DNA from: an uncultured delta proteobacterium
GTDB lineage: Bacteria > Desulfobacterota > Desulfobaccia > Desulfobaccales > 0-14-0-80-60-11
Direction: 5' to 3'
DNA: 64,000 bases
Assembly: GCA_963701845.1 (NCBI GenBank)
Contig: CAVPBF010000004.1
Coordinates: forward strand, 124,449 to 188,448
This document shows positions 5,594 through 39,386 of the stretch, in pieces (position 1 is the first letter of the stretch; every line of letters begins with the position of its first letter). The position numbers were made by a program, and so were the translations under genes. The notes under the pieces are model-generated. The model was given only the letters and a program-made list of their open reading frames with translations, ran no database searches and had not been told where the DNA came from.

Positions 5594-5777
5594 TGCCTCT
5601 GCCTCCCACGGTGATTTTATTCCCCACACTATTCCCCACACTTGAGACTAATATAAGGGTATAAATGAGTAAGTCAAGAAAAAAGTGAGGACAGAAAATG
5701 CCATGTAATCAATGGTTTATAAGAAAGGTGGGTAAGGGCCAGTAAACTATACCCTCTGGCCTGTCACGCCGGAGGTC

Positions 5778-5805
5778 GCGAGTTCGAGTCTCGTCGTCCC
5801 CGCCA
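5778..5805 (+). other. tRNA 3'-end remnant (T-arm, acceptor 3' strand, G73, CCA); candidate integrase attachment-site scar
   Basis: gcgag-ttcgagt-ctcgt T-arm followed by cgtcccc-g-cca. No complementary 5' acceptor strand (ggggacg) or anticodon arm within 100 nt upstream. A canonical terminator follows. About 185 bp from the integrase start. Confidence 0.55.
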
Positions 5806-5815
5806 AAGAAATCAA

Positions 5816-5849
5816 GGGGTTAGCTCAAAGGGGCTAACCCTTCTTTTTT
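5816..5849 (+). terminator. rho-independent terminator
   Basis: gggttagc / gctaaccc 8-bp stem followed by ttctttttt. Confidence 0.7.
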
Positions 5850-8700: not shown

Positions 8701-8716
8701 TGGCATTGGCGTTGCA
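8701..8716 (+). promoter_or_regulatory. sigma-54 (-24/-12) promoter P1
   Basis: TGGCATtggcgTTGCA, with GG-N10-GC spacing exact. About 35 bp upstream of an RBS plus ATG at 8752. Confidence 0.6.
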
Positions 8717-8859: not shown

Positions 8860-8958
8860 TGGCGACGATGACGGACTGAAGAGTAAAAATCCTTGCAGCT
8901 GATTTTTGACCGCATATTTCAGTTTGGCGCCCCCAGGCTGCCAGGAAGAAAGGCAGGT

Positions 8959-9294
8959 ATGGAAAATCGTCAGACGCATCGGCTTTACACCAACTTCGCC
9001 ATTGAATGCCGGGCCGTCCTCCAGGATCAAGGAAGTACGTTTGCCACCCCGGCCAGGATGAAAAATATCAGCCGGGGCGGGGCTTATCTGGAATGTGACG
9101 CCGAACCCCAATTATTCCCGGGAGAGATTGGCCACTTTACCTTCAGTGCACCGGCCGGCCAACAGGAGATGGGAGACGTTCGTCTGGCCGCCAAAGCCAG
9201 GGTTTGCCGCCTTGACCGCCTCCACGGAGACCGGGCCTCTTTCGGCCTGGCGGTGGAGTTTCTTTCCGGCCCCTTGATCTTTTACCAGGAATGA
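8959..9294 (+). CDS. PilZ domain protein (putative c-di-GMP binding)
   Basis: From M at 8959 (RBS AGGAAGAAAGG): N-terminal NRQTHR (RxxxR-like) and NISRGG ((D/N)xSxxG), with PilZ-typical size. The ORF-track start at 8893 is likely too long. Confidence 0.65.
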   Translation: MENRQTHRLYTNFAIECRAVLQDQGSTFATPARMKNISRGGAYLECDAEPQLFPGEIGHFTFSAPAGQQEMGDVRLAAKARVCRLDRLHGDRASFGLAVEFLSGPLIFYQE

Positions 9295-23666: not shown

Positions 23667-24698
23667 GGGGTTCTCCCTTTTCGATGATCGCCATCGCCCG
23701 GAAGTACTCTTCCCGGCGGGTGTTGTCCGTCAACCTGGCGTAACGCCGGGTCATCTCGATGCTGCTGTGGCCCAGGAGCTGTTGCAGACACTCCAGGCGC
23801 ATGCCGGCGTTCAACAGCTCGGTGGCGCAGGTATGCCGCAGACAATGCAGACTATAGCCCTTATGCGCCAGGCCTGCCTTTTCCAGATATCTTGACGAAC
23901 CTCATTCGGCTCGCAGTGTAGCCCAAACGCAGCCGTCCCTGGCCGTAAAACAGACGCTCCTTCTCCGGGTCTCTCTTTTCCAGCCACACTGTTAAGGCCT
24001 GCACAGGCGTCCTCACTTAAGTAGGCCACCCGGCCCACCCGCGTCTTCTGGGCTTCCCTGATGATGATCCGCTTTTCCCTGAGGTTCACCTCGCTCATCC
24101 TGGTGGCCAGCAGTTCCCCGATGCGCATCCCGGTCCGGAGCAACACTAGGATCAGGGCCCGGTCCCGGGGTTTCTCAATCACAGCCAGGAACTGCTGGAC
24201 ATCCTCCGGGTCCATGGCCCGGGGCAGCGCCTCCGGCACCTTGACCCGCAGCTTCCTTTTCAGCAGATCGGGATGCACCACTTCCTGATCCACCAGATAC
24301 CGGAGAAAGGCATAGAGGAGTCTCAACCGGGTGGACACGGTGTTGGGCTGCATGCCCCGGTCCTGCTCGTGTTCGATAAAGCTGCTCATATCATCCCGGG
24401 TGATGGTTTCCAGGGAGGTCCTACCCCGCTCCTTCAGGTAGGACAGAAAGAGCATCAACGTCGTAAAGTTGCTGCGGATGGTGTTGGGCCGGCAGTTGCG
24501 CCGCTTCTGGTCGTGCAAATAGTCCTTGACGTATGGCTCCCCCAACAGTTCCTTTTCGCCCAACTGCTTTAAGCACTTTTCAATCAGCGGATTCTGGAGA
24601 CTAGGGTGTAACCCGTCCGTGACTTGAGGCGGACTCCCAGGTGGGTTGAACGGCTGGCGGTCTGGGAATTTCTCTTGAGGAACATGCTCAATGGTCAT
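23593..24698 (-). pseudogene. second tyrosine recombinase, at least two frame disruptions near 23860-23990
   Basis: Start MTIEHV at 24698 behind AAGGAGG. Contains TIRSNFTTLMLFLSYL and LLRTGMRIGEL. The C-terminus continues in other frames as ..TVWLEKRDPEKERLFYGQGR.. and ..HCLRHTCATELLNAGMRLECLQQLLGHSSIEMTRRYARL. Its 3' end overlaps the start of the downstream recombinase. Confidence 0.85.
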
Positions 24699-24822
24699 CA
24701 CTACCTCCTTTTCCTCAGAAAAAACAGGTAGATGATGACCTGGAAATCTATCTCCCGTCAATCACCTTTTTATTACGTACAGTGGCAAGATATCAACCAC
24801 TGAGAGAGAATTGGCGAAAGTG

Positions 24823-27636
24823 TTAAGATGTTTTGAGGCCATTCCAGGTCCACCCCCTTCCTTTGCTGGTCTGCTGCGATGATGAGCTTCCCAAGAGGGC
24901 ATGGAACCAGTTGGCTGAGGGCTTGATTTTATGCTCTACCATTTGCAGGATGGCCGGCAGCACTCTCAATGACGCCCACAGCACGCATAGACTGCCCACG
25001 GTGGCTAAAAGACCGAGCGAAAACGTCCCCTGGTGGCTGGAGATCATTAAGCTTCCAAAACCGACTGTGGTGGTCAGGGAGGCTAAGGCCACGCCCTTGG
25101 CGGTGCTGACCGGTAAAGTAATGCCTTGGGCCGAGCCCTCCAACTGCCATCGGGTCAGGATGATGATCCCAAATTCAACCCCTTCTCCCAAAATCAGAGG
25201 CAGAAATAATACGTTGGCCTGGTTGAAGGGCAGACCCAACAGCAGCATCAGGACCAAGGTCAGGCAGGTCCCCACACATAGAGGAACCAGGGCCAGAAGG
25301 GTCATGACAAGGCTGCGGTAAAAAAAGAGCAGCATGGCGGCAATGGCCAAAACCGCGATACCGGAGGCGGAAAGGATGGCATTGCGGAAATCTCTGGTAA
25401 TGAAATAGAGCAGGACCGGGTCCCCTACAGCCTGCGGATCTACCGTCTGAATGCTTTTAACGAACTGACCCAAAGGAGCCGTATCCCAAATATCCTGCGC
25501 GGGGAAAGCCTTAATCAAATAGAGTCCATCATGCATATTGCGCACCCGGACCGCCGGGGGCAGGTTTTCGGGGGTCATATCCGGCAAGGTCAGGACGGAT
25601 TTTACATATCCCTGAAAGAGGCCCCATTTATCATGAAGGTCTGCAAAAAGATGGCCCTCGAAATCGGCCAGCCGGTTGCTGATCACGGGATTCTGCGAAC
25701 CGAGGACCGGCAATATTTGATTAATTAGACGATGAGTCTCCAAGATGTTTTCCTTAGTGGCCGCCTTTTGTTCTTCCAGTTCTTTGCCGGCTTCATCAAT
25801 TTTAAAATTGATGCGGCTCAGGATACCGGCCAACTCTTTCGGGTCGGAAGGCATTGATACTCCGGTCAATTGTACCGATGCCGCCAGGGGTTCCAGGTCT
25901 TTCAGAATCGAGCGCTTTTCCTGTTGATGAGCTGGCAAAAAAGAGAGCATCGACTCCACGTGCGAAACGGTTTTCAATTTCTTTAAGGCGGTGGTTTTGT
26001 CTTCCAGCTCCTTGAGAGATGCGGCGGTCATGGCCGCAAATGTAGTGGAATACTGTGATTCTTTCAGGATGCGCATTTCCCAGACCACCGACTCAACCCG
26101 GGGATTTTGCAGGTGCAGGGGATTTAAGTCGAACTGCACTCGGAACAGGCTGAAAATTCCCAAACTGGTGATCACCAGGCCCGTAAATATTATAAATTTC
26201 GGATACCTCCACTTCAGGTTCAGAAAAGGAGAGTGATCTACGGGACATCTTGCAGGCAGACCTGCCCTAACATATGGCTCGCTGGCCAGCGCCAGGGGAG
26301 GGGCCAGTAAAATTGTCGCTATCAGCATGATGAAGATCCCGATGGCGAGTATGAGCCCCAATTCCGCCAATCCCTTAAAATTCACGAAAGCTAGGGGCAG
26401 GAAAGAAAACAACGCAGCCAGGCCGGCATAGATTATCCCTGGAAGACTCCTAAGCACACCGCCATTTAAGGCCATCAGCGTAGCAGTTTGTTCATAGGCG
26501 GCATCTTCCTCGTCCAACCGGCATAACCAGTGAACCCCATAATCTATGCCGAGCCCCAAAATCAAGGGGGCGAAGATCACTGACAAGATATTCAGATGGC
26601 CGACTATTAAGGTGGCCAGGCCGAAGGTCCAGCAGACTGCGATTATCAGGATGACCACTTCCACCAAAGGCCGCCGCAGTCCCCGGAAAAAGACGACGAG
26701 CAGACCGAACTGGCCCAGCAGAGAGAGCCACGTGGCCAGGGTGACGGAATTCATGGAACTCTGCATTTCATCGGCTTGCAGGGCGTCGGGCCCGGTTACA
26801 CCAACCTCTAAGCCGGGGAACTGCGCTTGCACCTGGTGCACCAATTCTCGAAGCAGTTCCAAAGTCTTGGCCGTCTCTGAAAAATTTCCGGGCTTCGGAC
26901 TCACCATAATGGCAAGAAATTTATCGTTCTCGGTAAAAAAATAGCCTTCTTCACTCAAATCGCTGCTGGTTACCGGAAACAGACTTTGAAAAGGGGAGAC
27001 AAAAGGGCGCCCTTCTTGAAGGCTCAGCAAGAGTTGTTTAAGGCTGTTATTGAGCAGGGAAACGTCGGGCAGTTCCTGGTGGGGCTGCTCCTCGAGAAAA
27101 TCGGTAAACGCAGCCTTGATCATCAGGCGAGCCATCTGCTCGTTGATCTGCGTATAGAAGTTGACCAGACTGGGCCTGTCAGCCAGCCGGTTGATAAGAT
27201 CACCCTGATCCAGGAGATTATCCCTCAGTTTTTTTAGATCAGCGATCTCTGGATAAAGGAGGGCCCAGGGCTTCAGGCTGTTCGTGTCCACGCGATAGAA
27301 GATTTCGGGTAATCGATCCGGGTAGCGGCGCAGCTCGGCAACCAGGGCTTCAGCAAACTTGATGCTTTGCCGCCGCTCCACATTTCGAACCATCACTACC
27401 ATACCGTCGCGACCGCCGAACGCTTTATCAATTCGGTCAGTAAGATTAATAAGGTCCTTGTTGGCCGAGATCAGGTTTTTCCGATCGGTATCGATTTTCA
27501 GATGCGCCATCGTGTAGAAGACTGAAATGGCGGCCAGCGCCACGGCCAGCAAAATCCCGAACCACCGAAGCCATGGGTTCCTCAGATAGTCGATGACCGT
27601 CGCACAAATTTGCTGAAGTTTTTCATTAAATTTCAT
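24823..27636 (-). CDS. MMPL/RND-superfamily exporter (COG1033 / HpnN-like)
   Basis: 937-aa ORF with two 6-TM bundles separated by large periplasmic-type domains. GLGIDYGVH and LGEGVEFGII are typical of MMPL/SSD-type RND proteins. Confidence 0.85.
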   Translation of the reverse strand: MKFNEKLQQICATVIDYLRNPWLRWFGILLAVALAAISVFYTMAHLKIDTDRKNLISANKDLINLTDRIDKAFGGRDGMVVMVRNVERRQSIKFAEALVAELRRYPDRLPEIFYRVDTNSLKPWALLYPEIADLKKLRDNLLDQGDLINRLADRPSLVNFYTQINEQMARLMIKAAFTDFLEEQPHQELPDVSLLNNSLKQLLLSLQEGRPFVSPFQSLFPVTSSDLSEEGYFFTENDKFLAIMVSPKPGNFSETAKTLELLRELVHQVQAQFPGLEVGVTGPDALQADEMQSSMNSVTLATWLSLLGQFGLLVVFFRGLRRPLVEVVILIIAVCWTFGLATLIVGHLNILSVIFAPLILGLGIDYGVHWLCRLDEEDAAYEQTATLMALNGGVLRSLPGIIYAGLAALFSFLPLAFVNFKGLAELGLILAIGIFIMLIATILLAPPLALASEPYVRAGLPARCPVDHSPFLNLKWRYPKFIIFTGLVITSLGIFSLFRVQFDLNPLHLQNPRVESVVWEMRILKESQYSTTFAAMTAASLKELEDKTTALKKLKTVSHVESMLSFLPAHQQEKRSILKDLEPLAASVQLTGVSMPSDPKELAGILSRINFKIDEAGKELEEQKAATKENILETHRLINQILPVLGSQNPVISNRLADFEGHLFADLHDKWGLFQGYVKSVLTLPDMTPENLPPAVRVRNMHDGLYLIKAFPAQDIWDTAPLGQFVKSIQTVDPQAVGDPVLLYFITRDFRNAILSASGIAVLAIAAMLLFFYRSLVMTLLALVPLCVGTCLTLVLMLLLGLPFNQANVLFLPLILGEGVEFGIIILTRWQLEGSAQGITLPVSTAKGVALASLTTTVGFGSLMISSHQGTFSLGLLATVGSLCVLWASLRVLPAILQMVEHKIKPSANWFHALLGSSSSQQTSKGRGWTWNGLKTS

Positions 27637-27780
27637 GATAATTCCTCACTCGTTTCCCGCGGTTTTTCTTTGGCCAGTCTATGGATGTTTTCGCCTAAGA
27701 AAGGTATGTTCCCAAAGGCTGCCTGAGCGTCAGGGCCTCATTGCTAATGCGCTCCATACAGAATGATTCCAACCAGGTGG

Positions 27781-27972
27781 TCAGGCTTTGCGGGGACTTG
27801 AATTCTGGTAGTTGAAAATCTTGACGCGGACCCAGACCTTCTCCGGGTGATCGGCCAGATAGCGGCGCCAGGCTTCTTCCTGGCTTTCCCCGTTGCCTAC
27901 CTCCACCACCGCCAAATTAATATTCAGGTACCGAGCCAAAACCGACCGGTCTTCAGAGTCACCCATGATCAT
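27781..27972 (-). CDS. hypothetical 63-aa protein, first ORF downstream of sigma-54 promoter P2
   Basis: GGAG RBS precedes the ATG. Non-degenerate composition. Sits between P2 and the MMPL gene on the same strand. Confidence 0.4.
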   Translation of the reverse strand: MIMGDSEDRSVLARYLNINLAVVEVGNGESQEEAWRRYLADHPEKVWVRVKIFNYQNSSPRKA

Positions 27973-28045
27973 TTTTCTCCGCAGCCGCTTAAAATTTCAC
28001 TAAATACAATTGGGAAATTCGAAGATCAGCGTTAACTGGTTCTTT

Positions 28046-28061
28046 TGCAAAGGGAATGCCA
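28046..28061 (-). promoter_or_regulatory. sigma-54 (-24/-12) promoter P2
   Basis: The minus strand reads TGGCATtccctTTGCA, with GG-N10-GC spacing exact. Points toward 27972 and the MMPL gene. Confidence 0.6.
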
Positions 28062-28101
28062 ACTGTAAGTAGTTGAAATATCTATGGTTGGTATTTCCTG
28101 G

Positions 28102-28137
28102 TTCGTGAATCTTCGAGAATTTGCGATAATTCGTAAA
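28102..28137. promoter_or_regulatory. 36-bp candidate enhancer (UAS) for P2
   Basis: ttcgtgaatcttcgagaatttgcgataattcgtaaa matches the reverse complement of 30117-30153 at 28 of 36 positions. Lies 42-78 bp upstream of the P2 -24 element. Confidence 0.5.
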
Positions 28138-28244
28138 AATTAATGGATAGTGGCTGACGCCTTTGATAAAATTTACCTACAAGTTTTTAAATTCACCGCC
28201 TGTCCTGCTAAGGATTCAGTCGTGTCAAATAAGAATCCGAGATA

Positions 28245-30080
28245 ATGGCCGATACCGGAGTCAAGAAGATGGAAGAAGCACCTTCTCTGCGGGATAAGGA
28301 TTACCGCACCCTACTAGACAATGTCCCCGTACTGATCGTTCGTTTCGATACACAGTTGCGTCGGATTTATGTGAATCCTGCCTGGGAAGAAGCCATCGGC
28401 CTGTCCGCCGCAGATGTCATAGGCAAGGGGGTCAACGAAATTCCCGAACTCCCGGCTATTGCCAATCTTGTGGACAAGCTCCAAAAAGTCCTGAAAAGCG
28501 GTACCCCTGAAAAAATGGAGTTCAGTTGGGCAAATGCGCGTGGCAAAACCATCTTCCTGGAATTTGTCATCGTGCCGGAATACGACCGTCAAGGGGAAAT
28601 GATCAGTCTATTAGCCGTTGGGGTCGACCAGACCGAGCACAGACAGGCGGAAGAGCAGCTAAAGAATAATGAAAGGAACCTTCGCACCACTATCGAAACC
28701 ATTCCGGCCTATGTCTTTAGCGCTCTGCCTGATGGCTCCTTCGATTTCGCCAGTCAAAATTGGTTTGATTATTCGGGTCTCTCTCCAGAAGAGGTCTATG
28801 GTTGGGATTGGACGGACGTAGTCCATCCCGAAGACCGCGACCAGGCGGTGGAGAAATGGCGTGAATCCATGGCGACAGGGGTACCGGGAGAGAACGAACA
28901 CCGCGTTCGGCAAGCAAATGGAGAATATCGCTGGTTCCTGGCTCGCAACGCAGCCTTGCGAGACGAAAATGGACACATTATCAAGTGGTATGTGGTCCTG
29001 ATGGATATCGAGAACCAAAAGCGCACCGAGGCGCGTCTCCTTCAGGCGCTCGACGAAATCAAAAAGTTGCAGAACCAGCTTTCGAAGGAAAACATTGTCT
29101 TACGGGAAGAAGTTGATAGAACTTCAATGTTCGAAGAGATCGTGGGGGCCTCACCGGCTCTGAAGGCTGTGTTGGCCCGCATCGACAAAGTCGCCCCGAC
29201 CGACTCCATCGTCTTCATCACCGGGGAAACGGGCACGGGCAAGGAACTCGTGGCTCGAGCCATCCACAAGCGGTCGCCGCGTGCCTCGCGAGCCTTTGTG
29301 AGTGTCAATTGTGCGGCAATTCCTGCACCGTTGATTGCTTCCGAATTATTCGGCCATGAAAAAGGAGCTTTCACCGGAGCCCATCAGCGGCGCCTCGGCC
29401 GTTTCGAATTGGCAGAAGGAGGCACGATCTTTCTGGATGAAATCGGCGAACTGCCGATGGAGACCCAGATTGCCCTGCTCCGGGTGCTGCAGGATCAAAA
29501 ATTCGAGCGTCTGGGTGGTAACCAGCCGATCCGATCCAATGCCCGGGTGATTACCGCCACCAATCGTGATTTGCCAGCCGCCATCGCAGCCGGCAGCTTT
29601 CGGAGCGATCTATTCTACCGCCTGAATGTATTCCCCATCCAAATACCTCCCCTGCGTGAACGCCAAGAAGACATCCCCATACTGGTGGAGTACTTCATCC
29701 AGCGCTATGCCAGCAAGCTGGGGAAGAAAATACGGAGCGCCAGCAGGAAGACCATGGATCTGCTTCAATCATACTCCTGGCCGGGCAATATTCGTGAGCT
29801 GCAGAATGTCATTGAACGCTCGATTATCGTCTGTGACACGGAAATTTTTTCCGTCGATGAGAACTGGTTGGTTCGTGAGTCTTGCCAGCCTCAGCCGGCG
29901 GGCCAACCGCTCTCCTACATGCTGGTGACTCAAACCAAAGAGATGATCGAAGCTGCCTTGGCTGAGAGCGGCGGCCGGGTGTCCGGACCGTCAGGTGCGG
30001 CCGCCAGGCTGGGAATGCCCGCCTCGACTCTGGAATCGAAGATCAAATCCCTCAAAATCAACAAATATCTCTTCAAGTAA
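28245..30080 (+). CDS. sigma-54-dependent transcriptional activator (PAS-PAS-AAA+-HTH bEBP)
   Basis: Two PAS-like segments. AAA+ core with GETGTGKE (Walker A), ELFGHEKGAFTGA (GAFTGA loop), TIFLDEIGE and RVITATNRDL. C-terminal Fis-type HTH (GGRVSGPSGAAARLGMPASTL). Confidence 0.9.
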   Translation: MADTGVKKMEEAPSLRDKDYRTLLDNVPVLIVRFDTQLRRIYVNPAWEEAIGLSAADVIGKGVNEIPELPAIANLVDKLQKVLKSGTPEKMEFSWANARGKTIFLEFVIVPEYDRQGEMISLLAVGVDQTEHRQAEEQLKNNERNLRTTIETIPAYVFSALPDGSFDFASQNWFDYSGLSPEEVYGWDWTDVVHPEDRDQAVEKWRESMATGVPGENEHRVRQANGEYRWFLARNAALRDENGHIIKWYVVLMDIENQKRTEARLLQALDEIKKLQNQLSKENIVLREEVDRTSMFEEIVGASPALKAVLARIDKVAPTDSIVFITGETGTGKELVARAIHKRSPRASRAFVSVNCAAIPAPLIASELFGHEKGAFTGAHQRRLGRFELAEGGTIFLDEIGELPMETQIALLRVLQDQKFERLGGNQPIRSNARVITATNRDLPAAIAAGSFRSDLFYRLNVFPIQIPPLRERQEDIPILVEYFIQRYASKLGKKIRSASRKTMDLLQSYSWPGNIRELQNVIERSIIVCDTEIFSVDENWLVRESCQPQPAGQPLSYMLVTQTKEMIEAALAESGGRVSGPSGAAARLGMPASTLESKIKSLKINKYLFK

Positions 30081-30116
30081 TCCACATAGAAGCTGCACCA
30101 CCCGCATCAACTCATT

Positions 30117-30153
30117 TTTCACGAACTTTCGCAGACTCTCGAAGAATCACGAC
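30117..30153. promoter_or_regulatory. candidate enhancer (UAS) for P3, an inverted copy of 28102-28137
   Basis: tttcacgaactttcgcagactctcgaagaatcacgac. Lies 44-80 bp upstream of the P3 -24 element, mirroring the P2 arrangement. Confidence 0.5.
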
Positions 30154-30195
30154 TGACAAATTAGTTGCGATGCCGTAATTTCAATAACTTACGAT

Positions 30196-30211
30196 TGGCA
30201 TTGCCATTGCA
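30196..30211 (+). promoter_or_regulatory. sigma-54 (-24/-12) promoter P3
   Basis: TGGCATtgccaTTGCA, with GG-N10-GC spacing exact. About 105 bp upstream of the ORF starting at 30316. Confidence 0.65.
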
Positions 30212-30315
30212 TTCATAGCAGACAGAAAGGTCATGGCGCGGTGTTAAATCCACCCAACCGCGGGACGGCGATAACACAATCTTCACAATCTTCGCGCTCA
30301 TGAAATGGTGAGGTT

Positions 30316-30609
30316 ATGCCTGATAAAGAGACATTTCAAAAAGAAACAAGGGCTAAGCTAACAAAGTGGAGCAAAATAATTAATGAGCTAAGCGCTGAGG
30401 GCGAGGAAAAGCTAATAAAGCGCAGCCGAGACTTCAATCGTTTTTGTAAGAAGGGGATCACGATCTACGATTGTTATGTGGAAGCGAGGCGAAAGTTCGA
30501 AGAATTTGCCACAACCGACGATGCAACATGGGAAAGACAGGCTTCAGACATCGAGAATGTTATCAAAGAAATGGATCATCTCTGGGAAACGCTGTTTGCA
30601 AAACAATGA
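30316..30609 (+). CDS. hypothetical 97-aa helical protein
   Basis: First ORF downstream of P3. Charged, coiled-coil-like composition. No family recognised. Confidence 0.5.
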   Translation: MPDKETFQKETRAKLTKWSKIINELSAEGEEKLIKRSRDFNRFCKKGITIYDCYVEARRKFEEFATTDDATWERQASDIENVIKEMDHLWETLFAKQ

Positions 30610-30711
30610 ATCAAATAAGACTGCCGTTAGTTAAGGCTATTTAACTTTTTAGCAGCTTAATTGGACTGGTAGTGAAACGAAACAAGTTGCTGGAACAGGA
30701 GCAATAAACCG

Positions 30712-30978
30712 ATGACGTTGAAAATCCAGAGGCATATCAAAAAGGATAACGCCAGGTTTAACCTGTGTGGTCAAATCGACGCAAAGGAGCTGCCTGAGTT
30801 GCGAAGACTTTTGGCAGCAGAAGAACAAAAATATTTGGTTCTCGATTTAAAAGAGGTCAAGCTTATTGATCGGGAGGCGTTGAGATTCTTGGTTCGCTGC
30901 CAAGAAAGTGGCATTAAGGTTGAAAATTGCCCGGCATACATCCGGGAATGGCTTTCCAGAGAAGCAACCCAAAGCTAA
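30712..30978 (+). CDS. small STAS-domain-like protein (anti-sigma-antagonist fold)
   Basis: 88 aa. The pattern ..FNLCGQIDAKELPELRRLL....YLVLDLKEVKLIDREALRFLV fits the STAS core (G-x-l-D ... vvlDl..v.fiD..gl..L). Confidence 0.5.
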   Translation: MTLKIQRHIKKDNARFNLCGQIDAKELPELRRLLAAEEQKYLVLDLKEVKLIDREALRFLVRCQESGIKVENCPAYIREWLSREATQS

Positions 30979-31012
30979 CCAGGGTGCATGCACCCGACCC
31001 AAAGGTAAAACG

Positions 31013-31114
31013 ATGATTGGCAATATGCCTGATCTTGGCTTAATAATATTAGTTGGGGATATAACTTTAATATTACTTTTTTTGTTAGTTTTACTTATTT
31101 ATTCCAAAAAGTAA
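31013..31114 (+). CDS. possible 33-aa TM micro-protein
   Basis: MIGNMPDLGLIILVGDITLILLFLLVLLIYSKK. Weak RBS. Last ORF of the P3 unit. Confidence 0.25.
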   Translation: MIGNMPDLGLIILVGDITLILLFLLVLLIYSKK

Positions 31115-31366
31115 AGAATAGATTATTAACTTGTTACAATGAAATAATTACTTAACCCATTAAAAAATAACACAGACCCATTTGATTGGCTAGGCTCGGA
31201 GCTTTTTTCTCCTTCTGGAGGAGCACAATCGAAACCTGGATAAGGCTAATAATGAAGCTGAGCTTCAGACTAAAGCCGCCGGGCAGGTGGTGCAGCACAT
31301 AGCAATACATCGAGGATCAAGGATACAGCGACGTATTCTTTATCCTCAAAAACGGAGGGAAAAAAC

Positions 31367-32068
31367 ATGAGCGAAATCGAGTGTCAATTGTGCCGGAACC
31401 ATTTCAAGACGGGCCAAGTGATGAAGGCCAATCTACTTGAAGAACCTATTGTTCAAATGATCAGGGAAAAATACCCGGAATGGTCCTCTGAAGGCTATAT
31501 CTGCCTGCCCGATCTATATCTCTTCCGCAGTCGCTACGTGACTGAGATCCTCAAAACATCCAGCCAGGAGATTTATAGCCTGGGGAAGGAGATGGATAAA
31601 GAAGAACAGGCCACGTCCCGGAACATCAATAAAGAATTTGACAGCAGCCTTACCCTGGGAGAGCGGTTCGCCGACGCTCTGGCCAAGTTTGGGGGAAGCT
31701 GGACTTTCATAAGTATTTTCATAGCCATGATAGTCATTTGGATGGGCATTAACGGCTTTGTTTTCATGAAACAGCCTTTCGATCCCTATCCGTTTATCCT
31801 GCTCAACCTGGTGCTATCCTGTCTCGCCGCCTTTCAGGCGCCGGTGATCATGATGAGCCAGAACCGCCAGGAGGCGAAGGACCGCCTCCGGGCTGACCAA
31901 GACTTTGAGATCAATCTCAAGGCGGAAATTGAGATTCGCAAGCTGCACGAGAGGATGGACCATCTCCTGATGCATCAATGGCAACATCTGATGGATATTC
32001 AGCAGCTTCAGGTGGAAATGATGAAGGAAATCAGCCAGGTTTCCGTCAAAGAAGCAAATAATAATTGA
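31367..32068 (+). CDS. DUF1003 family membrane protein
   Basis: GGSWTFISIF..FDPYPFILLNLVLSCLAAFQAPVIMMSQNRQEAKDRLRADQDFEINLKAEIEI matches the DUF1003 core. An N-terminal CxxC-containing extension is present. Confidence 0.8.
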   Translation: MSEIECQLCRNHFKTGQVMKANLLEEPIVQMIREKYPEWSSEGYICLPDLYLFRSRYVTEILKTSSQEIYSLGKEMDKEEQATSRNINKEFDSSLTLGERFADALAKFGGSWTFISIFIAMIVIWMGINGFVFMKQPFDPYPFILLNLVLSCLAAFQAPVIMMSQNRQEAKDRLRADQDFEINLKAEIEIRKLHERMDHLLMHQWQHLMDIQQLQVEMMKEISQVSVKEANNN

Positions 32069-32099
32069 CTACGGTTATCGCTTTTCCCAAAGGTGCCTC

Positions 32100-32396
32100 A
32101 TGGAAACTCCAACTACGTTCTTTAAGGTCGTCGCTGCTGCTCTATTTCTATCGCTAACATTCTTGCATGCGGACAGCCTGAGAGCCGCAGCCGGACCTGA
32201 ACGCTTAAATAACTTCGAGTCGCAGGCCAGTATCACCGATAACAAAACGCGGTATAACCACGACAAAGAGGGGGGTGAAGAACCGGAACAAAAGCATGAG
32301 CGGTTTGCAGTGTTGGAGTGGCTGATCCGGGAAAAATTGATGCAACAGTATCAAAGTATGGATTTTCCCGCCAACCTCGACGTGGACGATTATTAA
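32100..32396 (+). CDS. hypothetical secreted protein (98 aa)
   Basis: Signal-peptide-like N-terminus (FFKVVAAALFLSLTFLHADS). No family recognised. Confidence 0.4.
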   Translation: METPTTFFKVVAAALFLSLTFLHADSLRAAAGPERLNNFESQASITDNKTRYNHDKEGGEEPEQKHERFAVLEWLIREKLMQQYQSMDFPANLDVDDY

Positions 32397-32515
32397 TAAG
32401 TAGTTAAGTGGCTAAAAGCCATTAATCTTGAGTCCAAAGGCAAGTCAACGTAATCAGGATGAGCCAGAATCGCCAGGAGGCGAATGACTGCCTCACCCGT
32501 AAAAGGAAATGAATT

Positions 32516-34195
32516 TTGCTTAACTGGCTGGCCGACATGCCAAACACGCAACCCATCGCCCACGGCGTCATCGTTCTCTGTCTGGTGGCAGCCTCGGGAC
32601 TGGCCCTCGGAAGCATCCGGGTCCGGGGGTTCAGTCTGGGCATCGCAGGAACGCTCTTTGCCGGCCTTTTCTTTGCTCACTTCGGCTTCAATTTGGACCC
32701 GTCCTTCCGTGCCTTCATCCAGGAATTCGGCCTGGTCCTCTTCGTGTATACCATCGGTCTGCAAGTGGGTCCGGGGTTCGCAGCTTCATTAAGACGCCAA
32801 GGCCTGTCGTTAAATCTGCTGGCGGCGGGCATTGTACTCTTGGGGGTGGCGGTGACGGTGGCGCTGTGTATGCTTTTGGGCATCGATCTGGGCATCGGCG
32901 CCGGCATTTTCGCCGGCGCCACCACCAACACCCCGGCCTTGGGGGCAGCCCAGGCGGCCTTGCAGACCTTACCTAACATTAGCGGGTCGAAAGCGGCTGA
33001 CTCCGCCATGGGATATGCCGTCGCTTATCCTTTCGGGATGCTGGGGATAATCCTGGCAATGGTGTTGGTCAAATCATGGTTTCGCCTGGACGTCCCCATG
33101 GAATTGAAGTCCTTCCAGGCTTCCCAACAGGCCGGCCGGGAACCCTTCGCCCGCATGACAGTTCGGGTAACCAACCCCAACCTGACCGGAATCCCTCTGA
33201 GCGGCATCCCCCATTTGGGGACCCCCGGCGTGGCGGTATCCCGCCTTAGACGTGCAGGTGAAACCGAGGTCAGGCTGGCCCTGGAAGATACCCCGGTGTA
33301 TCCGGGGGACCTGTTGCTGGCCGTTGGACCCAAGGACGATCTGAAGAGGTTTCAAATGACGGTGGGCGAGGAAAATCCAGAGGATTTGACTTTGGATTCC
33401 GGCCTTTTAACGTCCCGACAGGTACTGGTGACCCGGACCGAAGTCGTAGGTAAATCTCTGGGTGAGTTACATGAGCGTTATCCAGTCGAATTAAAGGCGA
33501 CGCGCCTAACCCGGGCCGGCCTGGATATGAGCATCTTTCCGAATTTGCGCCTCAGGTTCGGCGATGTGTTGTGGCTGGTGGGAAGCAAAGGGAATCTGGA
33601 CCGGGCGGCGGAAGTTCTGGGAAACTCCATCAAAGAGCTTAACTTGGTGAGGCTAGTGACCCTGTTCCTGGGAATGGCCCTGGGAGTGCTGGTGGGTTGC
33701 TACCCGTTCACGGTGGGGAGCATGCCGGCGCCGCTTCGACTCGGCCTGGCAGGAGGGCCGCTACTCACCGCCATTATTTTAAGCCGCATCGGCTGCACCG
33801 GACCCTTGCTTTGGTATCTGCCGACGAATGCGAACCTGCTCCTCAGGGAGTTTGGCATCGTTTTATTCCTGTCCTGTGTTGGTCTCAAGTCCGGAACGCA
33901 TTTTGTGGAAACACTAGTCCGGGGTCAGGGCTTCCTGTGGATGGCCATGGGGGCGGTCATAACCTTGGCGCCCATCATGATCATTTCCCTGCTCGCCCGC
34001 ATGGTCTTGAAAATGAATTTCATCAACCTGTGCGGCTTGGTGGCGGGAAGCCAGACCGATCCGCCGGCCCTGGTCTTCGCCCACGCGATGTGCGGCTCGG
34101 AGGATCCTTCCATCGCGTATGCGTCAGTATATCCGTTAACCATGGTGCTCCGCATCGCCGCGGCGCAAATGCTGGTGTTGTTTTTTGCCAGTTGA
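32516..34195 (+). CDS. YidE/YbjL-type (AAE family) transporter with two central RCK_C/TrkA_C domains
   Basis: 559 aa with duplicated membrane halves flanking two soluble RCK_C-like segments (..RMTVRVTNPNLTG..GDLLLAVGPKDDL.. and ..SRQVLVTRTEVVGKSLGEL..GDVLWLVGSKGNL..). Confidence 0.85.
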   Translation: MLNWLADMPNTQPIAHGVIVLCLVAASGLALGSIRVRGFSLGIAGTLFAGLFFAHFGFNLDPSFRAFIQEFGLVLFVYTIGLQVGPGFAASLRRQGLSLNLLAAGIVLLGVAVTVALCMLLGIDLGIGAGIFAGATTNTPALGAAQAALQTLPNISGSKAADSAMGYAVAYPFGMLGIILAMVLVKSWFRLDVPMELKSFQASQQAGREPFARMTVRVTNPNLTGIPLSGIPHLGTPGVAVSRLRRAGETEVRLALEDTPVYPGDLLLAVGPKDDLKRFQMTVGEENPEDLTLDSGLLTSRQVLVTRTEVVGKSLGELHERYPVELKATRLTRAGLDMSIFPNLRLRFGDVLWLVGSKGNLDRAAEVLGNSIKELNLVRLVTLFLGMALGVLVGCYPFTVGSMPAPLRLGLAGGPLLTAIILSRIGCTGPLLWYLPTNANLLLREFGIVLFLSCVGLKSGTHFVETLVRGQGFLWMAMGAVITLAPIMIISLLARMVLKMNFINLCGLVAGSQTDPPALVFAHAMCGSEDPSIAYASVYPLTMVLRIAAAQMLVLFFAS

Positions 34196-34269
34196 GCATC
34201 CTTTACTATATCGGTGGGGATGATTATTTTGTCTTTTAACTTAAGTAGTTGAGCAAGAGGAGAAAAACC

Positions 34270-35868
34270 ATGGAAAGTCAATTCGCCAGCAGTTATGGCC
34301 TGGAAAAGCATGGGATCAAGAATACGGGCTTCGTTTATTGGAATCTCTCCACTCCTCTATTGTACGAGGAGGTCATCCGGCGCCGGGAAGGTCGTATGGC
34401 TCACTTGGGGCCTTTAGTGGTCCGCACCGGCGAGTATACCGGGCGCTCCCCTAATGACAAGTTCGTGGTGAAGGAGCCTTCCAGTGCAGACAAGGTCTGG
34501 TGGGGTCAGGTGAACAAGGCCATGGCACCGGAGCGGTTTGCCTCCCTGCAAAACCGGCTGCTGGCCTATCTCCAGGGGAAAGACCTTTTCATCCAGGATT
34601 GCTTCGCCGGGGCCGATCCCGCCTACCGCCTGCCCATCCGGGTGATCACCGAGACTGCCTGGCACAATCTCTTCGCCCGCAACATGTTCATCCAGGCCAA
34701 CGCCGAGGAGCTGGCCAGCCATGTGCCACAGTTCACGGTGATCAATGCCCCTAACTTCCACGCGGTTCCCGAAGTGGACGGCACGCGCTCGGAGGTCTTC
34801 ATTGTCATTCATTTCGGCCAGAAGCTGGTGCTCATCGGCGGCACTCAGTATGCCGGGGAAATCAAAAAGTCCATCTTCACCGTGATGAATTATCTCCTGC
34901 CCCAAAAGCAGGTGCTTTCCATGCACTGCTCAGCGAATACGGGGCCGTCAGGAGATGTGGCCATTTTTTTCGGGCTTTCCGGCACCGGCAAGACGACCCT
35001 GTCCGCCGACCCGGGACGCACGTTGATCGGGGATGACGAACACGGCTGGAGCGACAAAGGCATTTTCAATTTCGAGGGAGGCTGCTACGCCAAGGTCATC
35101 AAATTATCCCCCACCGCGGAGCCGGAGATCTACGAGACCACCCGGCGCTACGGGACCATCCTGGAAAACGTCGGTTTCGACAGTTGGACCGGACGCCTGG
35201 ACCTGAATGACGACTCACTGACAGAAAATACCCGGGCCGCCTATCCCATCAGCCACATCCCTAATGCCACGCGGGAAGGTCTGGGAGGACATCCCAAAAA
35301 CATCATCATGCTCACCTGCGACGCCTTCGGCGTGTTGCCGCCTGTGGCGAAACTCACTCCGGCCCAAGCCATGTATCATTTTCTATCCGGCTATACCGCC
35401 AAGGTGGCGGGGACCGAAAAAGGGGTCACTGAACCCAGCGTTACCTTCAGCACCTGCTTCGGCGCACCCTTCATGGCCCTGCCTCCAACGGTATACGCCA
35501 ACCTCTCGGGAGAAAAGATCGCGGCCCACAACGTAGACGTCTGGCTGGTGAACACCGGTTGGAGCGGCGGCCCTTACGGTGTGAGACAGCGCCTGGACAT
35601 TGGCCATACCCGGGCTTTGGTGCATGCAGCTTTGGATGGTTCGCTTTCCAAGGTCCCCATGACCACCGAGCCCCTTTTTGGTCTGGCCGTCCCTACCGAA
35701 TGTCCGGGAGTTCCAGCGGAAATCCTCACCCCCCGAAACACCTGGAGCGATAAAGCTGCATACGATGCCCAGGCCAAGAAGCTGGCAGGCATGTTTGCCG
35801 AAAACTTCAAAACCTTTGCGGACCAGGTGAACTCAGAGGTGCGCCAGGCAGGGCCGCAACCAGTTTAG
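34270..35868 (+). CDS. pckA: phosphoenolpyruvate carboxykinase (ATP)
   Basis: [11 protein letters not shown] kinase-1a motif, [14 protein letters not shown] and IGDDEHGW. Start at 34270 behind GAGGAG. Confidence 0.92.
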
Positions 35869-35920
35869 ACCTGGCCAGGCGGCCTCGAAGCAGGATGCCT
35901 TAACCACAGGAGTCTGGATA

Positions 35921-36898
35921 ATGATTCAAATTCATTATAAAGAAATCGGGCTGGTGAATACCCGGGAGATGTTTGGTGAGGCCATGGCCGGGCATTATGC
36001 CGTGCCGGCATACAATTTCAACAATCTGGAGCAGCTCGAAGCCATCATCATCGGCTGCATCCAGTCCAAATCTCCAGTAATTCTCCAGTGCTCGGGCAGC
36101 GCCCGTAAATATATGCACGAGGCCATGGTGCCCCATCTAGTCAAAGGGGCGGTGGAAATGATGGAAGCGATGGGCGCAAGAATCCCCATCGCCCTGCACC
36201 TGGACCACGGCGACACCCCGGAGTTGGCCAAATCCTGCATCGACTCAGGCTTCTCTTCGGTGATGATTGACGGCTCCCATCATCCCTTCGCGGAAAACAT
36301 CCGTCTCACCAAACAAGTGGCGGAATATGCCCACGAACAGGAGGTCACGGTGGAAGGAGAGTTGGGGGTGCTGGCCGGGGTGGAGGACGAGGTCTCCGCC
36401 GCGGACTCCCATTACACCCGGCCCGCGGAGGTGGAAAAATTTGTCAAACAGACGGGGGTGGATTCCCTGGCCATCTCCATCGGCACCTCCCATGGGGCCT
36501 TCAAATTCAAGGTGAAGCCCGGCGAAGAACCGCCGCCTCTGAGGTTTGACATCCTGGAAGAGATCGAGCGCCGCCTGCCGGGATTTCCCATTGTGCTGCA
36601 CGGCGCCTCTACGATCATGCCCGAATACGTGGACTTGATCAACCGGTTTGGCGGCCGGATGGAAGAGGCGGTGGGCATCTCCGAAGAGCAGTTGCGTAGA
36701 GCCGCCCGCTCGGCGGTTTGCAAAATTAACATCGACAGCGACGGCCGCCTGGCCATAACCGCGGTGCTTAGGAAGATTTTCGCTGAAACCCCCGGAGAGT
36801 TTGATCCGCGCAAGTATCTGGGCGCGGCTCGAGACGAACTCGTCAAAATGGTCAAATATAAGAACGAGCATGTGCTGATGAGCGCCGGAAAAGCCTGA
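35921..36898 (+). CDS. fba: class II fructose-1,6-bisphosphate aldolase
   Basis: YAVPAYNFNNLEQ, ALHLDHGD, VEGELG and ISIGTSHGAFKF. Confidence 0.9.
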   Translation: MIQIHYKEIGLVNTREMFGEAMAGHYAVPAYNFNNLEQLEAIIIGCIQSKSPVILQCSGSARKYMHEAMVPHLVKGAVEMMEAMGARIPIALHLDHGDTPELAKSCIDSGFSSVMIDGSHHPFAENIRLTKQVAEYAHEQEVTVEGELGVLAGVEDEVSAADSHYTRPAEVEKFVKQTGVDSLAISIGTSHGAFKFKVKPGEEPPPLRFDILEEIERRLPGFPIVLHGASTIMPEYVDLINRFGGRMEEAVGISEEQLRRAARSAVCKINIDSDGRLAITAVLRKIFAETPGEFDPRKYLGAARDELVKMVKYKNEHVLMSAGKA

Positions 36899-36918
36899 GA
36901 CCTCTATAGGAGAGAGCC

Positions 36919-39386
36919 ATGGGAAATCAGCAAAAGTCTCAAGGAGAAAGACCTCGCACCGGAACCAGCCCGGAGACCCTAGCCCAGGCCATCCTGGATA
37001 ACCTTTATTACATTCGGGGATGCCCCCCTGAACTGGCCACGAAGAACGACTGGTATATGGCTCTGGCCTATACGGTGCGGGACCGGCTGCTGGACAACTG
37101 GGTGCGAACCCTCAGGCATCTCAAGGAAGACGTCAAGGTGGTGAGTTACCTTTCGGCAGAATTTTTGCTGGGGCCGCATTTGGGCAACAACCTCAATAAT
37201 TTAGGCATTTGGGAGCAAATCAAAGAAGGCGTGTCTCGACACGGACTCAAGTTAGAAGACCTCCTCGAACAGGAAAGCGAGCCCGGCCTGGGAAACGGCG
37301 GCTTAGGAAGGTTGGCCGCCTGCTACCTGGACTCCCTGGCCACCCTGGACGTTCCTGCCCTCGGATACGGCATCCGCTACGAATTCGGCATCTTCGACCA
37401 GGAAATCCGGGACGGTTGGCAAGTGGAGATCACGGACAAATGGCTGGAAATGGGCAATCCCTGGGAGATCTGCCGGCCAGAGATCGCCCATCGGGTAGGC
37501 TGGAAGGGCCACACAGAAATCTACCTTGACGCTAACGGCCAAGAGCGGCGGCGCTGGGTTCCGGATCAGCGTGGTGAAAGGTGTGGCTCACGACTATCCG
37601 GTCTCTGGCTACCGGAACCGGATCACCGGTCTCCTGCGTTTATGGAAAGCGGAAGCGGTGAAGTCCTTCGATTTTGCTGATTTCAACGTTGGAGACTACT
37701 ACGGCGCCGTCGAGGAAAAGGTGATCTCGGAGACCGTCAGCAAAGTGCTTTACCCCAATGACGAGCCCGCAGTGGGAAAAATGCTCAGGTTGGCGCAGCA
37801 GCATTTCTTCGTTTCCTGTTCGCTGCAGGATATGATCCGGATTCACTTGCTGAGGAAAAAAGATGTAGAGACCTTCCATGAGAGCTTCGCTATCCAGCTC
37901 AATGATACCCACCCCGCCATCGCGGTGGCGGAGTTGATGCGCCTCTTGGTGGATGAATACTTTCTCCCCTGGGAGCAGGCCTGGGAGATCACCTGCAAGA
38001 CTATGGCCTACACCAATCACACCCTTTTACCCGAGGCCCTGGAGACCTGGCCACTCGGGTTCTTTGGCGAATACCTGCCCCGGCACCTTGAAATCATCTA
38101 CGAGATTAACCAACGATTTTTGGATGAGGTGCGCCTCAAATTTCTCCTGGACGAGGAGAAGGTCAGGCGGCTGTCGCTGATTGACGAGACCGGGGGCCAA
38201 TCGGTGCGGATGGCGAATCTGGCCTGTGTAGGCAGCCATGCCATCAATGGAGTGGCGGCACTCCATACCGAACTCCTGAAACAGACAGTGCTCAAGGACT
38301 TTTATGATCTATGGCCGGAGAAGTTCGTCAATGTGACGAACGGTGTTACTCCCCGGCGGTTTCTGGCTCTGAGCAATCCCGGACTGAGCGGGCTTATCAC
38401 TGACAAAATCGGTCCTGGCTGGGTTAAAAATTTGGAACAACTCAGACGCCTGGAGGAATTCGCCGAAGATCCGGAATTCCACCGGGACTGGCGCCGGGTG
38501 AAGCTTGCGAATAAACAGACATTGGCGGCTGTTATCAAGGAGCGGACCGGAGTCGTAGTCAATCCAGAAAGCCTCTTCGATATCCAGGTGAAACGCATTC
38601 ACGAATACAAGCGGCAGCATTTGAACGTTCTGCATATCATTACCCTATTTAATCGCCTGAAAAGGCACCCGGAACAGGAACTCACTCCCCGCACCTTTAT
38701 ATTCGGGGGTAAGGCGGCGCCCAGCTATTTCATGGCCAAGCTGATCATCAAGCTCATCAATTCGGTGGCGGAGGTGGTGAATAAGGACCCAGAACTCAGG
38801 GACCGCCTTAAGGTGGTGTTCTTTCCGGATTTCAACGTGAAAAACGGCCAGATCATTTATCCTGCGGCCGACCTCTCGGAGCAAATCTCCACCGCTGGGA
38901 AGGAGGCCTCCGGGACCGGTAACATGAAGTTCGCCATGAACGGCGCCCTTACCATCGGCACGCTGGACGGCGCCAACGTGGAAATCAGGGAAGAAGCAGG
39001 GCAGGAAAATTTCTTTCTCTTCGGGCTTACTGCCGGGGAGGTGCAAGGCTTGAAGGCCGGAGGCTATTCTCCTCATCAATATTACCATGACCAGCCGAGA
39101 GCTTAAGGAAGCCCTGGACCTTGTCAGTTCAGGGTTCTTCTCCCACGGCGACCGTGAACTGTTCAAGCCCCTGGTGGATTCGCTGTTATACCACGACGAC
39201 TATCTCTTGCTGGCCGACTACCGCTCTTACGTGGACCGCCAGGATGACGTGGGCAACATTTTCCGGGACGAGAGACGCTGGGCCCGGATGTCCATCCTCA
39301 ACGCGGCGCGTATGGGCAAATTCTCCTCGGACCGGGCCATCCTGGAATACTGTGAGAAGGTCTGGAGAGTCAGACCAATAAGGTAA
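36919..39386 (+). pseudogene. glgP: glycogen/alpha-glucan phosphorylase, two frame disruptions (about 37571 and about 39089)
   Basis: Three consecutive ORFs join into one GlgP: ..GLGNGGLGRLAACYLDS.., ..[28 protein letters not shown].. (PLP-Lys motif), and a C-terminal ..[17 protein letters not shown]...FSSDRAILEYCEKVW. Confidence 0.9.

Follow-up and report, generated by a model that had tools for sequence, protein, structure and literature searches.

The 64,000-nucleotide stretch analysed here (the window) comes from an uncultured delta proteobacterium of the Desulfobaccales (contig CAVPBF010000004.1, positions 124,449 to 188,448 of the forward strand). It raises the question of how two sigma-54 promoters that flank a single gene are controlled. 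The gene codes for a bacterial enhancer-binding protein with PAS, AAA+ and helix-turn-helix (HTH) domains, and the promoters, P2 on the minus strand and P3 on the plus strand, face outward on either side of it. Comparison of this locus with related ones suggests that the PAS-PAS-AAA+-HTH protein activates both promoters, a reading to which we assign a probability of roughly 0.82. The features on which the argument rests are the following.

Plus strand, 28245-30080: activator gene, coding for a bacterial enhancer-binding protein of 611 amino acids (aa), with the Pfam domain order PAS-PAS-AAA+(Sigma54_activat)-AAA_lid-HTH_8
Minus strand, 28046-28062: P2 sigma-54 promoter, with the -24 GG at 28060-28059 and the -12 GC at 28048-28047
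Minus strand, near 28035: predicted P2 transcription start
Minus strand, 28102-28139: P2 upstream activator site (UAS), TTTTTACGAATTATCGCAAATTCTCGAAGATTCACGAA, scoring 60.0 with a position weight matrix (PWM) against 12.7 or less at any other site
Minus strand, 28066-28078: P2 box resembling a site for integration host factor (IHF), TTTCAACTACTTA, about -43 to -31 from the predicted start
Plus strand, 30195-30211: P3 sigma-54 promoter, found by pattern match
Plus strand, near 30222: predicted P3 transcription start
Plus strand, 30116-30153: P3 UAS, TTTTCACGAACTTTCGCAGACTCTCGAAGAATCACGAC, PWM score 49.8, located 36 nt past the activator stop codon
Plus strand, 30179-30191: P3 IHF-like box, TTTCAATAACTTA

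First, the two promoters were compared. As 17-mers, P2 reads TTGGCATTCCCTTTGCA (minus strand, 28046-28062) and P3 reads TTGGCATTGCCATTGCA (plus strand, 30195-30211). Both carry GG at -24 and GC at -12, 10 bp apart, within TGGCAC-N5-TTGCW (TGGCATTCCCTTTGCA for P2, TGGCATTGCCATTGCA for P3). The pattern TGGCA-N6-TTGCW occurs at four sites in the 64-kb window as compared to 0.40 expected, a count not attained in any of 100 shuffles. With the promoter PWM, P2 scored 39.9 and P3 55.5, the rest of the window staying at 4.3 or below. Upstream of each promoter lies a copy of a common element, the UAS. Positions 28102-28137 and the reverse complement of 30118-30153 are identical at 29 of 36 positions, and a search with the two-copy consensus, allowing up to three mismatches, returned only these two sites in the window where none was expected. 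The distance from the distal end of the element to the first G of the GG is 77 bp for P2 and 79 bp for P3. A first-pass annotation of this DNA had already described two exact, diverging -24/-12 promoters, each preceded by a shared 36-bp element with a repeated half-site TTCGTGAA/TTCGTAAA. Both promoters are present, the P2 end having been placed one base short and the P3 start one base late. The element is real, with 29 identities instead of the 28 reported and with one copy having been given as a 37-nt interval. The element-to-promoter distances were right within 1 bp, and the half-site exists as the outer part only of a pseudo-palindromic element.

The likeness between the two sides is not restricted to the UAS. 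A repeat finder returned two pairs of arms, 28103-28139 with 30116-30152 (84% complementary) and 28046-28079 with 30178-30211 (82%). Pairwise alignment of P2 with P3 likewise showed two conserved blocks separated by an unrelated spacer of about 22 bp. Because only the functional boxes are alike while the spacer differs, the resemblance is more probably due to selection than to recent duplication. Within the promoter-proximal block, the box TTTCAAnnACTTA agrees with the IHF consensus WATCARNNNNTTR at 12 of 13 positions, as do TTTCAACTACTTA and TTTCAATAACTTA, and is separated from TTGGCA by 3-4 nt. The functional unit is a module of about 95 bp that includes this IHF-like box, and not the 36-bp element alone. 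In the UAS itself, the best-conserved core is CGAA-N-T-N-TCG-NN-AATT-NN-CGAA. Four CG-centred sub-sites can be distinguished (CACGAA, TCGCAA, TCGAAG and CACGA), spaced by 8, 10 and 10 bp and therefore on one face of the helix. Alternatively, the UAS can be described as a pseudo-palindrome of 34-36 bp centred on TCGC-N-AATT-N-TCGA. The upstream UAS copy of the distant locus L001, described below, scores on both strands, which fits dyad symmetry.

In order to see how far the module is kept, nine related loci were studied in detail: L081-L088, whose activators are 94-61% identical to that of the window and which were obtained from a protein search with contig look-ups, and L001 (53%). A scan of a genome collection gave only relatives of 59% identity or less, and there was no record of the P0019 locus. 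The module adjoins the activator gene in all nine loci, mostly on both sides, and a third copy is found in L085, L086 and L087. The test proposed in the first-pass annotation, conservation of the element in orthologous loci, thus gave a positive answer, with fixed spacing, in 8 of 8 close loci and in L001. Its picture of a compact regulon agrees with the two promoters of the window but not with related genomes, where a third module is often present. Nineteen aligned modules from 10 loci yielded the consensus tTTTcaCGAA.T.TCGc.AATT.tCGAA.a.Tcacga, followed by about 22 variable bases and a.tTTCAAtgACTTacg.TTGGCAtt..caTTGCa. In these modules the promoter TTGGCAtt..caTTGCa is invariant or nearly so and the IHF-like box is conserved as tTTCAAtgACTTa; by alignment, the P2 promoter is conserved in L081 and L083-L088.

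The spacing within the module is rigid. The UAS-to-GG distance is 77-79 bp in 18 of the 19 modules and 90 bp in the remaining one, which is longer by 11 bp owing to a tandem repeat of the TTTCAATG box. Rare modules with long spacing (88-90 bp) were seen in L084 (3715-3804, minus strand), L106 (about 400-488, minus strand) and L162 (942-1045, plus strand), the extra 10-11 bp duplicating the TTTCAATG box. Since the spacing variants differ by +10 or +11 bp, the helical phase is kept. Rigid spacing together with variants longer by one turn suggests that the route between activator and closed complex is fixed in three dimensions. The mirror layout is also found in L001, an Acidoferrales-type metagenome-assembled genome (MAG) that holds the most distant full-length relative. 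There, the downstream module has its UAS at 5725 (plus strand), just past the activator stop, with TGGCAGCGTTCTTGCA 79-80 bp further on, and the upstream module, 5′ of the activator gene, has its UAS at 3244 (minus strand) with TGGCGCATACCTTGCT at the matching offset. The L001 modules (3100-3250, minus strand; 5725-5820, plus strand) would drive other cargo, namely two proteins whose N-termini resemble signal peptides, one of them a 522-aa open reading frame (ORF), and the L001 activator ORF has a longer N-terminal part (695 aa when begun at a TTG).

These comparisons bear on a quite different explanation, in which the inverted repeats of about 95 bp would be terminal repeats of a mobile element or scars of a duplication, with no regulatory role. 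The arms are indeed inverted repeats around a single gene, an integrase-like ORF (23811-24761) lies about 3.3 kb away, and the cargo genes near the activator vary between genomes. However, the likeness of the arms is limited to discrete boxes around an unrelated spacer of about 22 bp, the boxes are kept in loci whose activators are only 53% identical, and third copies occur in direct orientation. Moreover, the spacing to -24/-12 is either fixed or altered by one helical turn, no transposase is linked, and each arm is suitably placed 5′ of a gene with a ribosome-binding site. We consider an origin of this kind very improbable.

We then used a metagenome scan queried with nothing but the UAS core, TTTNNCGAANTNTCGNNAATTNNCGAA, so that the promoter played no part in the search. 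Among 118 UAS matches with at least 100 nt of sequence downstream, 71 were followed by TGGC-N8-TGC at a fixed offset: 78 in 46 matches, 79 in 21, 77 in two and 88 in two. No match had the promoter at any other offset. By our estimate, the chance of finding TGGC-N8-TGC at one given offset is about 6e-5. Several other UAS matches were followed by near-promoters with TGGT or CGGC, and the rest were mostly unrelated repeats. Over the 65 non-identical metagenome modules, the IHF-like box, which is absent from the search pattern, carries 1.3-1.7 bits per position. When the window was scanned with PWMs derived from these 65 modules, P2 and P3 scored 40-60 bits and nothing else exceeded 13. The modules belong to Desulfobaccales-type and Acidobacteriota-type genomes, a variant being found in Nitrospira-type ones.

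Which protein reads the UAS was examined through its genomic neighbours. Upstream flanks of at least 2.5 kb were available for 24 metagenome modules, and in 18 of these a homologue of the activator (56-100% identical) lies within 400 nt; the usual module positions are 23-59 nt past the activator stop, or 142 nt upstream and divergent. In all relatives with this UAS, including L001, the HTH reads GAAA(R/K)LGMPASTLESKIKSL. In Nitrospira-type and some Acidobacteriota-type relatives (L002, L006, L007), it contains PRQTLESKI instead of PASTLESKI and, just past the activator stop, the site TTCAGCAAATGCTGAA or a close variant replaces TCGCAAATTTTCGA. The variant site has the form GCCGA-N3-TTCAGCAAATGCTGAA-N-TTCG (L007, about 5509-5610, plus strand; L002, about 5560-5656, minus strand; L006, about 1723-1840, plus strand), and in L006 and L007 a sigma-54-like promoter follows it. 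This covariation of HTH and site, together with the cis-linkage, supports the view that the element is the adjacent activator's own site. Short of a binding assay, the covariation is the best available evidence for such an assignment.

It could still be argued that the sigma-54 promoters are real but that the shared element is bound by another enhancer-binding protein or by a repressor, the PAS activator acting elsewhere. Genomes of the group probably encode many enhancer-binding proteins (37 in D. vulgaris; PMC4641369), and in 6 of the 24 well-flanked modules no activator homologue lies within 400 nt. Nevertheless, the tight linkage of the other 18 to the activator family and the co-variation of HTH and site in Nitrospira-type relatives go in the opposite direction. 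In D. vulgaris, the genes of one-component enhancer-binding proteins mostly adjoin their cognate promoters (PMC4641369). Binding by another regulator is therefore judged improbable.

Activation of both promoters by the PAS-PAS-AAA+-HTH protein could proceed as follows. Counted from the predicted starts, the module would present a UAS of about 36 bp (about -104 to -67), a variable spacer of about 22 bp, the IHF-like box (-43 to -31) and the -24/-12 promoter. The activator would oligomerise on the UAS, and a bend would carry the UAS-bound activator to the closed sigma-54 holoenzyme complex. ATP hydrolysis, acting through the GAFTGA loop, would then open the promoter once the PAS sensor permits. 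The activator gene itself would be read from a conserved sigma-70-type promoter, which is probably repressed when the P2 UAS is occupied.

Several points, in addition to the six modules without a nearby activator homologue, weigh against this reading. Its support comes from sequence comparison. In the metagenome scan, the UAS columns that formed the query could not vary, and independent information comes only from the remaining columns, the IHF-like box and the promoter. The centre of the P3 UAS is degenerate, with GACT (30133-30140, plus strand) in place of the AATT found in nearly all other modules, and from its PWM score (49.8 as compared to 60.0) the P3 UAS may be weaker than that of P2. 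The sub-sites are readable either as direct CGAA repeats or as a pseudo-palindrome, which is compatible with more than one binding stoichiometry. RpoN dependence of P2 and P3 and IHF binding at the box are both predicted, and rpoN as well as the IHF genes may lie outside the window. Finally, the gap between the box and the -24 element is narrower than at many textbook IHF sites, and position 2 of the box departs from the consensus; an extended promoter element, or the site of some other protein, is also conceivable.

This last point deserves separate consideration. With UAS and promoter both functional, TTTCAAnnACTTA might not be an IHF site but part of an extended sigma-54 promoter, a contact for the C-terminal domain of the RNA polymerase alpha subunit (alpha-CTD), or a proximal site for the activator or a repressor. 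The box ends 3-4 nt before TTGGCA, near the region contacted by sigma-54, begins with TTTCA as the UAS does (TTTCACGAA), and departs from WATCAR at position 2. Yet 12 positions of the 13-nt IHF consensus are matched, and the spacing insertions that keep the helical phase are tandem copies of the box. Its centre, near -37, is also close to that of the functional orp2 IHF site at -43 (PMC3897727). A role other than IHF binding is possible, though we think it the less probable one.

The activator product has the expected properties of its class. Sigma54_activat (PF00158) was matched with an E value of 4.2e-70 and HTH_8 with 23.9 bits against a cut-off of 22, and the GHEKGAFTGA, Walker A GETGTGKE and FLDEIGE motifs are all present in the translation, GAFTGA and Walker A being intact. 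No cysteine occurs in the sensor region, over the first 290 residues or so of the protein. The public record starts the gene at 28269, giving a protein of 603 aa (P0010, 100% identical), and the exact 611-aa product has no public record. Homologues carry the JGI label 'formate hydrogenlyase transcriptional activator', which is generic. An identity with FhlA was rejected because the NF011958 model gave 369 bits against 830, with the AAA+-HTH part only being aligned. The activator gene would be transcribed from the following site.

Plus strand, 28144-28172: sigma-70-like promoter of the activator gene, TGGATA, 17 bp, extended -10 TGATAAAAT (consensus scan)

Nine orthologous upstream regions were aligned, and seven of them keep its -35 and extended -10. 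As the -35 begins only 5 bp from the edge of the P2 UAS, we infer that an occupied UAS would also repress the activator gene. Negative autoregulation is thus probable by analogy with pspF and glnAp1, which are precedents for the autoregulation of activators. A window scan found no terminator-like site between the activator stop and P3. An Rfam scan of 27000-32600 revealed no known leader RNA, a snoRNA match (E 0.78) being at chance level.

The other sigma-54-type sites of the window were also inspected. The exact match TGGCATTGGCGTTGCA at 8701-8716 (plus strand) was rejected as a further module, since the PWM scan gave neither UAS nor IHF-like box. It lies about 180 nt 5′ of a PilZ-domain ORF (8893-9294) and, because UAS and box are lacking there, presumably belongs to another activator. 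The exact match TGGCAAAAGCTTTGCA at 13027-13042 (plus strand), likewise devoid of UAS and IHF-like box, falls within a Schlafen/AlbA_2-HATPase_c_4 ORF (12432-14129) and is probably due to chance. A near-match, TGGCATTAAGGTTGAA (30909-30924, plus strand), was discarded as a promoter; its -12 GC is replaced by GA and it has no UAS. It is located in the 3′ part of the STAS-like gene described below, just 5′ of a transmembrane (TM) micro-ORF. A decayed promoter of the STAS-like gene's own, in 30610-30711, was rejected as well: the likeness is slight, and in the 94% orthologue L081 the corresponding gap is just 32 nt long.

Behind P2, two genes were considered.

Minus strand, 27781-27972: first P2 gene, 63 aa, no known domain, with a GGAG ribosome-binding site
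Minus strand, 24823-27636: probable second P2 gene, coding for a 937-aa MMPL/HAE3 RND transporter (Pfam MMPL, 98.7 bits)

The 63-aa protein belongs to a family of 48 protein clusters with 13 invariant columns, all labelled hypothetical. In L081 and L084 a member comes first behind the module, and in L082 a 62-aa gene assigned to no family occupies the equivalent position. The AlphaFold2 (AF2) model of the 63-aa protein (pLDDT 71) gave no fold match, and a Pfam search with this protein and with the 97-aa product of P3 gave zero matches. The 937-aa transporter is HpnN-like and BstA-like at scores below the equivalog cut-offs. A hopanoid transporter of the HpnN type was rejected (TIGR03480, 477 bits against 752; NF052374, 319 against 1100). 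A scan of the 144-nt gap between the two genes gave no terminator-like site, and small gene(s), Sel1 and MMPL stand on one strand in L081 and L087. P2 would drive the 63-aa gene and probably the HpnN-like RND transporter gene. Directly 3′ of the MMPL gene is the phage-integrase-family ORF (23811-24761, minus strand), with SAM-like and catalytic domains; synteny with the orthologous loci stops around it.

Behind P3, the genes are as follows.

Plus strand, 30316-30609: first P3 gene, 97 aa, predicted three-helix bundle (AF2, pLDDT 90)
Plus strand, 30712-30978: second P3 gene, 88-aa STAS-like protein (Pfam STAS_2, 25.8 against 29.2)
Plus strand, 31013-31114: putative TM micro-ORF of 33 aa, MIGNMPDLGLIILVGDITLILLFLLVLLIYSKK, from the ORF listing
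Plus strand, 31367-32068: DUF1003 membrane protein (Pfam), probable distal member of the P3 unit
Plus strand, 32100-32396: 98-aa protein with a hydrophobic N-terminal segment, possible regulon member

The 97-aa protein belongs to a family of 17 clusters, all labelled hypothetical, and scores 25.3 bits over its full length on the NCBIfam model sll1863_fam (NF052504; cut-off 35). By BLAST, the 97-99-aa family groups with proteins of 185-188 aa found behind the same module in other genomes. The L085 member of the 185-188-aa type reaches 144 bits on the sll1863 model, in two stretches. The 97-aa protein may accordingly be described as a candidate distant, single-repeat relative of the sll1863 stress-protein family. 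The 88-aa protein has further weak matches to STAS (19.3 against 22.6) and TIGR00377 (22.2 against 53.5).

The extent of the P3 unit was judged from gene order. The succession STAS, DUF1003 is conserved in L081 and L088. In L088, STAS, DUF1003 and Asp-Al_Ex also follow each other, on the opposite side of the activator, which supports a longer P3 unit in the window, where an Asp-Al_Ex/TrkA_C transporter gene comes after the 98-aa gene. In L106, the first gene behind a module codes for a protein with 40% identity (E 1e-14) to the 98-aa protein, which hints that the P3 unit or the regulon reaches past DUF1003. No plus-strand terminator-like site was found within 24500-32600. P3 would drive the 97-aa sll1863-like and the STAS-like genes, and probably DUF1003 and beyond. 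The first-pass annotation had assigned to P2 the 63-aa and MMPL genes and to P3 the 97-aa, STAS-like and TM micro-ORF genes. These contents are supported by gene order in orthologous loci, with a P3 unit that probably extends past the micro-ORF. Its remark that the P3 block is AT-richer than the core holds: the GC content is 0.42 in the 97-aa gene, 0.45 in the STAS-like gene and 0.38 in 30979-31366, as compared to 0.54 in the activator gene and 0.55 in the window. A conserved TM micro-protein of 39-43 aa (…RIRKWDEIDPGPWSSC…VVMWGLSIN) is encoded by the ORF that comes first behind the downstream module in L081 (6149-6268, plus strand), L097 and L130; it is absent from the P3 leader of the window. 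Further 3′ of the regulon block (34249-39106, plus strand) lie genes for phosphoenolpyruvate carboxykinase (PEPCK), class-II fructose-bisphosphate aldolase and glycogen phosphorylase. The aldolase and phosphorylase genes are again found as a pair in L081 (8006-9848) and L082 (7020-9848), and the locus therefore lies in a conserved chromosomal context and not in an island.

The first ORF behind the module was classified for 89 modules. STAS-like proteins of 86-97 aa are the commonest (35), followed by sll1863-like proteins (11, of which five have 97-99 aa and six are related to the 185-188-aa form), a 289-aa protein (8), a second family of 61 aa (5) and the 63-aa family (3); 27 have no match to six reference proteins. 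Genes found further downstream in related loci code for MMPL/RND transporters, MFP plus ABC transporters, DUF1003 proteins, Ion_trans_2 channels, Sel1 proteins and a PAS histidine kinase. This target set suggests an ionic, an osmotic or an envelope stress as the signal. Sll1863 of Synechocystis belongs to the proteins most strongly induced by salt and general stress, its function being unknown (PMC8670252), which makes such a role plausible here. We tentatively envisage, as a possibility that we would not yet favour, that the module of about 95 bp, with its rigid 78-79-bp spacing, is the portable cassette of a previously undescribed, cross-phylum general-stress regulon. In such a regulon, the PAS activator would induce sll1863-like and STAS-like proteins as well as lipid and ion transporters, and the cassette would have captured different cargo genes around the activator gene again and again.

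The layout of the locus is close to that of OrpR (DVU2106) and the orp1-orp2 operons of Desulfovibrio vulgaris Hildenborough, where IHF is required (PMC8359166, PMC3897727; Fievet et al. 2011). In both cases the gene of a one-component PAS-AAA+-HTH protein lies between two outward sigma-54 operons with a UAS copy on each side (PMC8359166), and is itself under a sigma-70 promoter (a predicted one at our locus). In both cases, too, an IHF site, here a predicted one, stands between UAS and promoter. The orp2 positions are -88 for the UAS, -43 for IHF and -11 for the sigma-54 site (PMC3897727, PMC8359166), as compared to about -86, -37 and -24/-12 here. The components are different. The OrpR site is a GC-rich palindrome of 17 bp, GGGCGYRTTTTGCGCCC, whereas the present UAS is an AT-rich pseudo-palindrome of about 36 bp with a CGAA/TCG core. 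The single PAS domain of OrpR carries an Fe-S cluster, whereas two PAS domains and a cysteine-free sensor are found here. Its targets are the orp genes of the orange protein complex, in contrast to small STAS-like and sll1863-like proteins with transporters further 3′. The OrpR regulon is made of two operons only, while a third module is often present in genomes related to ours. A search of the 64-kb window for GGGCGYRTTTTGCGCCC with up to three mismatches gave nothing at the locus and one match at 15455, which is at chance level (1.4 expected). The missing motif, the two cysteine-free PAS domains and the unrelated targets rule out an OrpR orthologue.

A second comparison can be made with PspF of Escherichia coli. 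The pspF gene is divergent from the sigma-54 target promoter of pspABCDE, with a UAS and an IHF site in the shared intergenic region. Its sigma-70 promoter overlaps or abuts the UAS, which results in negative autoregulation, and the targets are stress-response proteins. The P2 side of our locus has the same disposition, with a divergent sigma-54 target promoter, UAS and IHF-like box between the genes, and an activator promoter abutting the UAS. PspF differs in that it is sensorless and controlled by PspA, has no second promoter 3′ of its gene and acts on other targets; identity with PspF was rejected (280 bits on the NCBIfam pspF model, cut-off 444). In the Desulfovibrionales, according to the text passages of Kazakov et al. 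2015 (PMC4641369), the genes of one-component enhancer-binding proteins are co-localised with their promoters as a rule. The regulons treated in those passages resemble the present one in having the activator gene beside a sigma-54 promoter, divergent or downstream, with a conserved UAS upstream (PMC4641369). No match to this regulator family, its motif or its targets occurs in the same passages, the motif tables of the paper apart (PMC4641369).

Overall, the regulator, its motif and its target set are previously undescribed, while the layout has an experimental precedent in OrpR/orp. No new mechanism is revealed, since OrpR/orp already demonstrates an equivalent layout experimentally. What the locus offers is a well-supported cis-regulatory code, made of site, spacing and promoter, for a PAS-type sigma-54 activator that is widespread yet uncharacterised among uncultured bacteria of sediment and soil, which should aid the annotation of many MAGs. 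The rigid spacing and its one-turn variants illustrate geometric limits on the communication between enhancer and promoter. Finally, the 63-aa family and the sll1863-like, small STAS and DUF1003 proteins are tied to one regulator, a functional lead for these families, and for the relatives of sll1863 a dedicated activator would be especially welcome as such.

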